Below the pieces are notes generated by a model that worked only from the letters and a program-made list of their open reading frames with translations, did no database searches and was not told the DNA's origin. The translations under genes and the position numbers were made by a program. Below, one piece after another: positions 43-2,702 of a stretch of 64,000 nt of DNA (position 1 is the stretch's first letter; every line of letters starts with the position of its first letter). The DNA is from an uncultured Chthonomonadaceae bacterium (GTDB lineage Bacteria > Armatimonadota > Chthonomonadetes > Chthonomonadales > Chthonomonadaceae): assembly GCA_963817895.1 (NCBI GenBank), contig CAWFQB010000003.1, positions 1 through 64,000 of the forward strand, in the 5' to 3' direction.

Positions 43-2078
43 CTATGTAACGACGATGCGCAGTTTGCCCGGTATGGCGGCGCAGCAGGGGAGCAGGGGC
101 GTTTCTCCCTGCGCGGCCATTCCCCACGGACCTTGTCCGTAGGGCGCAATGGCTAAGGCTTGTTTCCACGCGCCGTCTTCAAAGCCGATGTCGCGCCATA
201 CCGCTGTTTCCTGCCGCGCGGAACGCCATGACGCATCGGTAACAATCGTCTGTGTTGCGCCGTCGGCGAAATGCAGTTCCAGTTTGGCGATCAGTCCGGC
301 GGGGTTCTGCGCGACGGGCGCGGGCTGATTGGTTGCAAGCGCGGCAAGGACGTTCGCGCCCGGTTTCAGCCATGCTTTCAGATTGGTAAACTCCCGTCCC
401 ACTTTCCAGTTGGCTTTTGAACCGAGTTCCTGCCCGTTCAGCCACACGGTAAACAGGTCGTCGGCGGAGATTTTCAGGCGGGCGCCGGTCAGTGTTTTAC
501 CGGGCGGCAGAGTAAATTCGCGGCGGAAGTAACGGCTTTCGGTTGGGGCGTCAACGCGCGGGGTTGCCTTCGGGAAACCATATCCACCGGCTGCCCTCCA
601 GCGTCAGGGGCGTTGGCGCATCCGTTGTCACCCATTCGGGATGGGGCGCGCACTGTTCCCAATGGTAATTCAGCAGCAGTTTACGCGCCATCCCCACCTG
701 TTCGGAACCCGGCAGACGCATGGCCTGCTGCCACGAAAGGTTGGTGTAGCCGCCGAACGTGACGGAGGGTTCCCCTGCCCGGTTTACCTGCCAGATGCCA
801 TTCCCGCCGTACGTGTAGCCTGCGCAGCCGTTGAGCAGGCAGTTCCAGACGAACAATCGCTGTATGGTCGCGTTGTTGTAATCAAGCGACAGCAGCGCCT
901 CGTAATTCACTTCGCCTTCGACAATCGGCAGGGTGGGAGTGGCTTTGTAGGAGGCGCGAATGGTGTTAAGCGTGGGCGCGAGATCGCTGAGGCCGCCGTG
1001 TCCCGTTTGCAGCATGTCGTAATCCAGACGCGCTCGGGTCCAGCGTTGCGCCCCGCGCGCTCAATTTGCCCAATCCGGTCGGATGTACCGTCAAAACGCG
1101 CCGGAAAGGATCAATTTGGCGGGCGTAGCGGCAAATGTCCGTCCACTCGCGAACCTGATTTCTATCATTGTAGGGGAAACCCGGCAGTTTATAATAGGGC
1201 AGATTCACTTCGCCCGCCATGCACCAGATCACGGGAAGAGCGCCGTAGCGGGCGATCAGATACCGCCAGTGCTGTTCTAATTTTTGCGTCCCCATAAACG
1301 GCTGAAAGTAGCCCCACGCGCCCACGATGCAGGGCGTGATTCCGTTTTCGACAAGGAGTTGCAGCCGTTTATCCGCTTCCTGAAAGTATTCGGGGCGGAT
1401 ACGCTTGTAGCCGGGTTCCCAGGGCAGGCCCGCCTCGTTCGCGCCGCGCGGGTCGAGCGGTGGCATTTCCGGGTACAGTCCCGCCACAATCTGAACCACG
1501 TTGAAGCCTTTGGCCTTGCGGTCCGCAAGGAGGGTTTGAAACTCGTCCGGCCAGCTTCAGGCGGCTGCTCAGGCCCATCCACCATGTATCGCCAAGCCAC
1601 AAAAATGGCGTCCCGTCCGCGTGTTCAAAGTAGCGCTTATTGGAGGAAACCCGAACCGGGCCGTGCTGATACAACGGATTTTTGCCCCGGTACGGCGTGA
1701 CCATAATTTGGCGCTCTGGTGCTGTAAATCGGGGTTTGTGGTGTCGCTGCATTCCGTCGGAAAAGAGTACGCGCCCGCTTTACCTGCCGCAAAGCGGACG
1801 CGCCACGTTTGCCCGCCATCCCAGAATGCGGGAACGCGCTGCTGTGTGCCGTCCGGGGCCGTGAATGTGGCGTCCAGCGTAACCTCGTTAAACGGGTCGG
1901 CATACGCTTTGCGGGACATGAACGTCCACTCCGCAACGGTATTGGCGGCAACTTTGCGCGGCGTATCTTCGGCCATCACACTCCGGCCTGTGAGCAATAG
2001 CCACAACCCGGCAGTTAAGGCGCGCCAGAGCAGGCGATTTATCGGCGTTCTCCCTGTGGCCCTCAACCGGGCGTCCAC
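43..2078 (-). CDS. Secreted DUF5060/DUF4038 (apiosidase/GH140-like) glycoside hydrolase with a C-terminal galactose-binding-like domain; split over about 5 frames
   Basis: Consecutive fragments: signal-like segment, YADPFNEVTLDATF..PAFWDGG (DUF5060), HADGTPFLWLGDTWW, WRYLIARYGALPVIWCMAGE, QTGHG..EGEVNYE..GYTYGGNGIWQ, then WIWFPEGNP..NPAGLIAKLEL. The 3' end is uncertain. Confidence 0.7.
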
Positions 2079-2126: not shown

Positions 2127-2702
2127 TTAATGCGGGCTGTTCAGCAGTTTCTCTATTTGCGCCTTCACTTCCTCTAAATCGCCGTCAATGCGCGTAACAA
2201 ATTTTCCCTGTTGGTCAACCAACACGCAGGAAGGAATACTGCCCCCGCCGAATTGATTGAAAACCGTCTGATCTTCGTCCGACAGCAGCGGGTATGTCAC
2301 CTTATGCTTGTCGCGAAAGGCTTTCAATTTAATGGCGGGATCGGTCAGATTGGGGTCGGCGTCCCGTTCGGAAACGGCGAGGGCAAGCACCTGTACGCCT
2401 TTGTTCTTGTACGCCTGCCAGATTTCCTGTTCCAGATGCGGAGCCTCCGCATTGCAGCTTCCTCACCAGGAGGCGTAAAACACGAGGGGAACGATCTTGC
2501 CCCTGTAGTCCGAAAGGCGTGCGGTTTTGCCGTTCTCATCCTTGAGCGCGAAATCCTCCACCGCTTTTCCGGTCATGGAAGTCAGCGTTCCGTTCATCGG
2601 CTCACCCGTCGCGGCGGGTTTCATACTCTGCTGAAACGAGAACACGACCCATCCGATTGCCAGTACCAGCATCGCCGTCAGCAATCCCACTCGTTTACTC
2701 AT
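2127..2702 (-). CDS. Membrane-anchored TlpA/AhpC-TSA family redoxin, probable selenoprotein (UGA at 2463-2465 read as Sec, WUGSC)
   Basis: ORFs 2463..2702 and 2127..2390 share a frame and are separated by one TGA: DFALKDENGKTARLSDYRGKIVPLVFYASW*GSCNAEAPHL...YPLLSD...IPSCVLVDQQGK. N-terminal TM segment present. Confidence 0.85.
2436..2452 (-). promoter_or_regulatory. Candidate bacterial SECIS hairpin
   Basis: AUGCGGA-GGC-UCCGCAU stem-loop starts 11 nt after the in-frame UGA and has G in the apical loop. Confidence 0.6.

Follow-up and report, generated by a model that had tools for sequence, protein, structure and literature searches.

A ResA/TlpA-like redoxin gene of an uncultured Chthonomonadaceae bacterium with an in-frame UGA at the active site and an adjacent SECIS hairpin

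The window analysed here, a 64,000-nt stretch of DNA from an uncultured Chthonomonadaceae bacterium (assembly GCA_963817895.1, contig CAWFQB010000003.1, positions 1 to 64,000), contains a minus-strand redoxin gene with an ATG at 2702-2700, a TAA at 2129-2127 and one TGA in frame between them. Read-through of the TGA yields a protein of 191 aa, in agreement with the first-pass annotation, which had followed the frame to the stop at 2127. The features of the locus, in window coordinates, are as follows.

2127..2702, minus strand: gene for a 191-aa ResA/TlpA-like redoxin, predicted to be a selenoprotein (AhpC-TSA 89.2 bits; Redoxin 71.6 bits; ResA 4nmu, E 4.3e-20)
2634..2690, minus strand: hydrophobic stretch at the N-terminus, residues 5-23, either a signal peptide or a membrane anchor (Kyte-Doolittle 19-residue mean 2.34)
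2463..2465, minus strand: in-frame UGA, predicted Sec80, first position of the U-G-S-C motif (U80-G-S-C83; TGA in 11 other genomes)
2454..2456, minus strand: Cys83, putative resolving cysteine (invariant in 21/21 aligned sequences)
2436..2452, minus strand: SECIS hairpin with a 7-bp stem and a GGC loop, which widens to AGGCU if the A-U pair is open (covariation, bSECIS model)
2232..2234, minus strand: Pro157, probable cis-proline position of the thioredoxin fold (nearly invariant; matched in the alignment by the proline within GVGPLP of ResA)

The TGA at 2465-2463 is preceded by FYASW and followed by GSC, and the earlier claim that this single in-frame TGA occupies the first Cys position of the motif is upheld by its alignment with Cys in homologues. 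Both the AhpC-TSA and the Redoxin Pfam matches of the read-through product span the TGA, the PF00578 score lies well over the cut-off (89.2 against 26 bits), and the best match among PDB sequences is ResA (4nmu), followed by further matches to 1st9 and 1jfu; the predicted fold is ResA/TlpA-like. Gene calling with table 11 breaks the gene into pieces of 79 and 87 aa, and an open reading frame list with an 80-aa threshold shows the 87-aa downstream piece only. Within the protein alignment, the column of Sec80 is invariantly Cys or Sec. Glu86, three residues beyond the second Cys, aligns with Glu80 of ResA and Glu71 of StoA, residues which the text of PMC2665060 describes as tuning active-site reactivity. 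An extra cysteine, Cys159 (2226-2228, minus strand), lies two residues past the cis-proline; it is common to G001 and P0002 and absent from most orthologues.

All 11 orthologues measured begin with a hydrophobic stretch, with 19-residue hydropathies of 1.41-2.22 in the ten besides this one, and no lipobox Cys was found in that of the present gene. The membrane anchoring proposed in the first-pass annotation is plausible from the hydropathy of residues 5-23, which fits an anchor and a cleaved signal peptide alike; several orthologues look more like the latter. The segment looks anchor-like within the bacterium's own genus and more like a cleaved signal in others. Neither a sigma-70-like promoter nor a terminator beyond chance was found near the gene.

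A search for the redoxin over 41 genomes gave a match in 38, and 20 loci were read at the aligned codon. Both TGA and Cys, the two states which the first-pass annotation had proposed to look for, were present. TGA was read in 12 of the 20 loci, namely this gene and 11 close homologues (in G001, G002, G004, G005, G009, G011, G017, G018, G019, G020 and G021), and Cys in the other 8, which comprise a close homologue in G036 with TGT and seven distant paralogues. The closest public matches are from Chthonomonadaceae or Chthonomonadales, phylum Armatimonadota, and within a 251-genome sample of the phylum 26 genomes matched at E 1e-38, with a TGA inside 24 of 27 matches. In one database homologue, P0008, the Sec position is occupied by Trp (W-W-A-G-C), probably because a gene caller rendered a UGA as Trp.

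The hairpin AUGCGGA-GGC-UCCGCAU, previously noticed as starting 11 nt after the UGA, was located at 2452-2436 of the minus strand, where its first base is the 11th after the UGA and its loop follows 17 nt after it. The bSECIS model given in the Fig 2 legend of PMC13188914 has a loop of 3-9 nt, a stem of 4-16 bp, a G among the first two loop bases, a spacing of 16-37 nt and an energy of at most -7.5 kcal/mol. The hairpin fits this model, with a 3-nt GGC loop, a 7-bp stem, a spacing of 17 nt and an energy inside the limit (-8.3 kcal/mol for the stem, -9.7 with flanks). Energy alone is unremarkable: compared with shuffles over four spans, it gave z scores of 0.15, 0.56, -0.35 and 0.35, not beyond chance. 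Of the genome's 207578 TGA triplets, 3025 (1.5%) are followed at this offset by a stem of at least 7 bp. Across 11 distinct but related orthologue sequences, with the structure taken from this gene's sequence, 98.7% of cells were paired, against at most 55.8% in slid controls. Both sides changed in two of the seven pairs (C-G to A-U and U-A to C-G), and the covariation of 0.197 compares with 0.066 for shuffles, none of 500 being as high.

Conserved Glu-x-Pro codons coincide with the hairpin (within N84-A85-E86-A87-P88-H89), so Cys genes were taken as the control. Selection of the rows combined a motif expression with a profile filter; L009 and L024, whose frames close early, were excluded from the protein alignment and the count. 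The SECIS core (GGAG plus stem) was present in 38 of 38 UGA rows and in 1 of 41 Cys rows, or 1 of the 27 Cys rows that keep Glu, counts which are not independent trials because the rows are kin; in a smaller control set, the stem was found in 16/16 UGA rows and 0/18 Cys rows. The Glu codon was GAG in every UGA row (38/38) and in 13 of the 27 Cys rows. Counts at codon +5 and at the synonymous Pro wobble were complementary: GCG 21 with CCG 21, GAG 16 with CCT 16, and CGG 1 with CCC 1. The assignment of the hairpin as a SECIS element is therefore borne out by the model fit, the covariation and its tracking of the UGA.

The machinery implied by a selenoprotein was present to a large extent. The selA gene is intact and over its cut-off, selD is over its cut-off with an in-frame TGA of its own approximately 4 kb from selA, and a tRNA-Sec (selC) was recovered at 63.9 bits with anticodon TCA. 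The expectation of all four genes holds for these three; selB (C14:204960-206852) is present at full length but frameshifted, with 8 frame-breaking indels relative to the G001 gene and a score under the cut-off. A combined pattern of UGA-x-x-Cys and SECIS core gave 36 matches in 18 of the 41 genomes, each of which has selA and/or selB, and one of these matches looks like chance. The pattern was found in none of the 10 genomes in which neither selA nor selB was found, the Fisher p of 0.002 being overstated because the genomes are kin. The reversed pattern gave no match, and the Cys version of the combined pattern gave 7 in 6 genomes.

Taken together, the in-frame TGA almost certainly encodes a selenocysteine at the active site of the redoxin. 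That the TGA arose by nonsense mutation or sequencing error, or is a UGA read as Trp or Gly, is scarcely credible. While the assembly is error-prone and the orthologue in G002 is interrupted further downstream of the site, the same TGA occurs in 11 other genomes aligned with Cys and not Trp, the assembly errors seen are indels, and SECIS presence tracks the UGA state; TGA closes 831 of 2131 long open frames in this genome and is therefore an ordinary stop here. A true selenoprotein gene by descent, in a strain that lost Sec decoding through a broken selB and makes only the 79-aa fragment, is very improbable, less so than the foregoing. The 8 indels favour it, as does the fact that, among 29 genomes with a match, selB is under the cut-off only in this one (G000) and in G008. 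However, the essential gene rpoC (C3:352734-357250) is also frameshifted, and frame changes affect 13 of 48 control open reading frames (those passing filters of 127 given, some being antisense shadows of one gene), including 7 of 8 in the selB neighbourhood, so the selB frameshift is probably an assembly error. Moreover selA, selC, selD and all UGA/SECIS sites remain intact. Frame changes in the control open reading frames amount to approximately 0.3 per kb and concentrate on one part of C14, and because the assembly is this rich in indels its broken genes are not to be called pseudogenes without reads. Each of the 11 genomes with a TGA homologue has selA and an intact selB over the cut-off. 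Directly downstream of the redoxin gene, a gene for a DUF5060 and apiosidase-like glycoside hydrolase (43-2078, minus strand) lies in several frames, probably from the same assembly errors.

As a whole, the gene very probably encodes an exported thiol-disulfide reductase of the ResA/TlpA type with an attacking Sec, read through by means of the SECIS. In this scheme SelB would recognise the hairpin, which lies 17 nt beyond the UGA, and deliver Sec-tRNA, an established mechanism whose parts are recognised here by sequence, and the hydrophobic N-terminus would carry the redoxin domain outside the cytoplasmic membrane. There, Sec80 would attack the disulfide of an oxidised substrate, and Cys83 would resolve the mixed bond to leave a selenenylsulfide. 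By analogy with the biochemistry of ResA/StoA and CcdA, DsbD may then re-reduce the selenenylsulfide with cytoplasmic electrons; ResA and StoA are believed to take electrons from CcdA (text of PMC2665060). A DsbD-type gene with a weak Pfam match (34.3 bits) lies on C14 (581500-583900), split in this assembly.

The most likely role would be general envelope thiol repair or isomerisation, and a DsbD-recharged extracytoplasmic reductase for general envelope thiols is somewhat favoured over a dedicated cytochrome c maturation factor. Less probable, though carrying appreciable weight, is that the same Sec enzyme acts as an exported thiol peroxidase or as a CcmG/ResA-type apocytochrome c reductase. 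The best matches are to ResA, the ResA Glu is kept, the genome has cytochrome c assembly genes, and the source records of some Cys homologues call them 'peroxiredoxin'. Against these points, no AhpC/TSA match lies near the cytochrome c assembly genes, the nearest being approximately 17 kb away (the gene on C11), a search of the genome, which is 81% complete, gave no ResB, the motif is UxxC and not the TxxU of peroxiredoxin selenoproteins, and the PrxU score is far below its cut-off (27.9 against 270). Among 14 annotated loci the redoxin showed no link to cytochrome c maturation genes, which in this genome lie on other contigs.

No single conserved partner of the redoxin gene was apparent across these 14 loci, in which 33 open reading frames were scanned. 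The neighbours in this genome are the broken apiosidase-like gene and a DUF2961 gene. In four genomes (L035, L041, L043 and L044) the orthologue comes after two tandem genes for S41/PDZ C-terminal peptidases that are read in its own direction, and in a further four it is turned towards an HlyD/MacB pair. The UGA homologue of G021 (L045:3003-6271) carries a frameshift of its own and immediately precedes merA-like and merT/HMA genes, with which it shares the strand. In G005 (L046:5925-9524) the gene for SBP56, the 56-kDa selenium-binding protein, is followed two genes later on its own strand by a second Sec redoxin, which is fused to DUF2092. Loci L148, L150, L153, L154 and L155 of family f32 each hold two or three UxxC redoxin genes within approximately 3 kb.

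Five of the 31 AhpC/TSA-domain matches in this genome contain a TGA; it always takes the place of the first Cys, and GGAG-N3-CC follows it at a constant offset. The four besides the gene in the window (L166-L169), together with a further selenoprotein gene, are:

C3:448397, plus strand: UGA redoxin, U-I-C-C, with a DUF2092-like N-terminal domain
C5:542719, minus strand: UGA redoxin
C6:13945, minus strand: UGA redoxin
C11:128878, plus strand: UGA redoxin
C4:511540, plus strand: formate dehydrogenase alpha subunit with an in-frame TGA (ARI-U-HS) and a strong hairpin, a classical selenoprotein

Besides the U-I-C-C protein, the four redoxins comprise two U-G-A-C near-duplicates and one protein that is fused to a beta-propeller of the YVTN type. 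Two paralogues, the C11 copy among them, match DUF2092 at the N-terminus with scores below or close to the threshold. The count of UGA and SECIS pattern matches in this genome is the highest among the 41. A rhodanese-domain gene (C1:83994, plus strand; L170) with an N-terminal DUF4760 has YCA-U-SDE and a strong hairpin, and scores below cut-off (72.3/115) against NF041203, 'rhodanese-related (seleno)protein'. A genome-wide screen of TGAs by motif and hairpin was dropped, as its 2907 candidates were mostly spurious. A coding-model screen recovered several real sites and missed C3:448397, so this list of the selenoproteome is incomplete.

The history of the family was approached with a quick, unrooted tree of 92 rows and 143 columns, which has several long branches and is weak in places. 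Twelve of the 14 database proteins found entered it with CxxC, as close homologues or outgroups, plus P0010, and P0008 was left out. The tree needs 12 changes between Sec and Cys, of which at least 6 are forced by well-supported branches. Cys sequences adjoin or nest in Sec groups, one instance being the sister pair of this gene, P0002 with P0010 (support 96). A Sec gene from Melainabacteria falls within a Cys clade (SH-aLRT 99). L150 (G179) is a Cys copy with a decayed hairpin. One SECIS core at the same offset is shared by all 38 UGA rows, including those of distant paralogues and the Melainabacteria gene. Independent origin of the Sec genes and an ancient origin with many losses may both accommodate the tree data. 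Other families already offer precedents, with SECIS remnants known from Cys genes and shifts from Cys to Sec known from families with UxxC (text of PMC1794560).

A speculative reading, which we hold possible and rather less than likely, is that the conserved Glu-x-Pro codons of the TlpA family (G-GAG-NNN-CC) themselves form the apical stem-loop of the SECIS and ease repeated, independent switching between Cys and Sec, and that Armatimonadota expanded an exported set in this way. With these codons as the stem-loop, few and mostly synonymous changes would convert a Cys gene to a Sec gene. If true, Armatimonadota built an expanded set of exported selenium reductases, with five here in at least three domain architectures. 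A narrow search of the literature on SECIS and coding constraint found no earlier statement of this idea. The Sec genes, Cys genes, decayed hairpins and one fixed SECIS core offer a clean set for studying SECIS constraint on protein sequence. The redoxin also exposes an annotation blind spot, since table 11 calling cuts the gene in two.

Compared with known systems, the redoxin reveals no new mechanism. It differs from the PrxU peroxiredoxin selenoproteins (TxxU; NF040737, 27.9 against 270) in its UxxC motif. With the WAxxUGC or UGC-containing TlpA selenoproteins (NF041054) it has in common a TlpA-like fold and Sec at the first active-site position, but its motif is UxxC and not UGC, and it scores 48.1 bits against a cut-off of 300. 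It resembles Bacillus ResA and StoA and rhizobial TlpA in its hydrophobic N-terminus, the position of CxxC, the Glu three residues from the second Cys and the cis-Pro, whereas its first Cys is Sec and no maturation or sporulation genes are linked to it. None of the NCBIfam equivalog cut-offs for ResA, TlpA and StoA is reached (98.8/170, 58.8/230 and 36.5/210), and the redoxin is predicted to work like ResA/TlpA, and is not filed as their equivalog.

The redoxin belongs to the catalogued Prx-like thiol:disulfide oxidoreductase selenoproteins, a family (PF00578, UxxC/UxxU) tabulated in the text of PMC13188914 and PMC9312934 and represented by 225 sequences of 'Prx-like 1' in that of PMC2398784. 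The word 'Armatimonad' has 0 occurrences in the main text of PMC13188914 and PMC13326102, and no description of a selenoproteome or selenocysteine for Armatimonadota or Chthonomonas was found in the literature searched; supplements or BSepDB may list such entries. Common to the redoxin and the family are PF00578, UxxC, a SECIS just 3' of the UGA and frequent Cys homologues. The examples in the text of PMC13188914, PMC9312934 and PMC2398784 are from Deltaproteobacteria and marine metagenomes, whereas this redoxin is armatimonadotal and, unlike the family as described, is one of five paralogues with one SECIS core in a single genome. A catalogued selenoprotein family is thereby extended into Armatimonadota.
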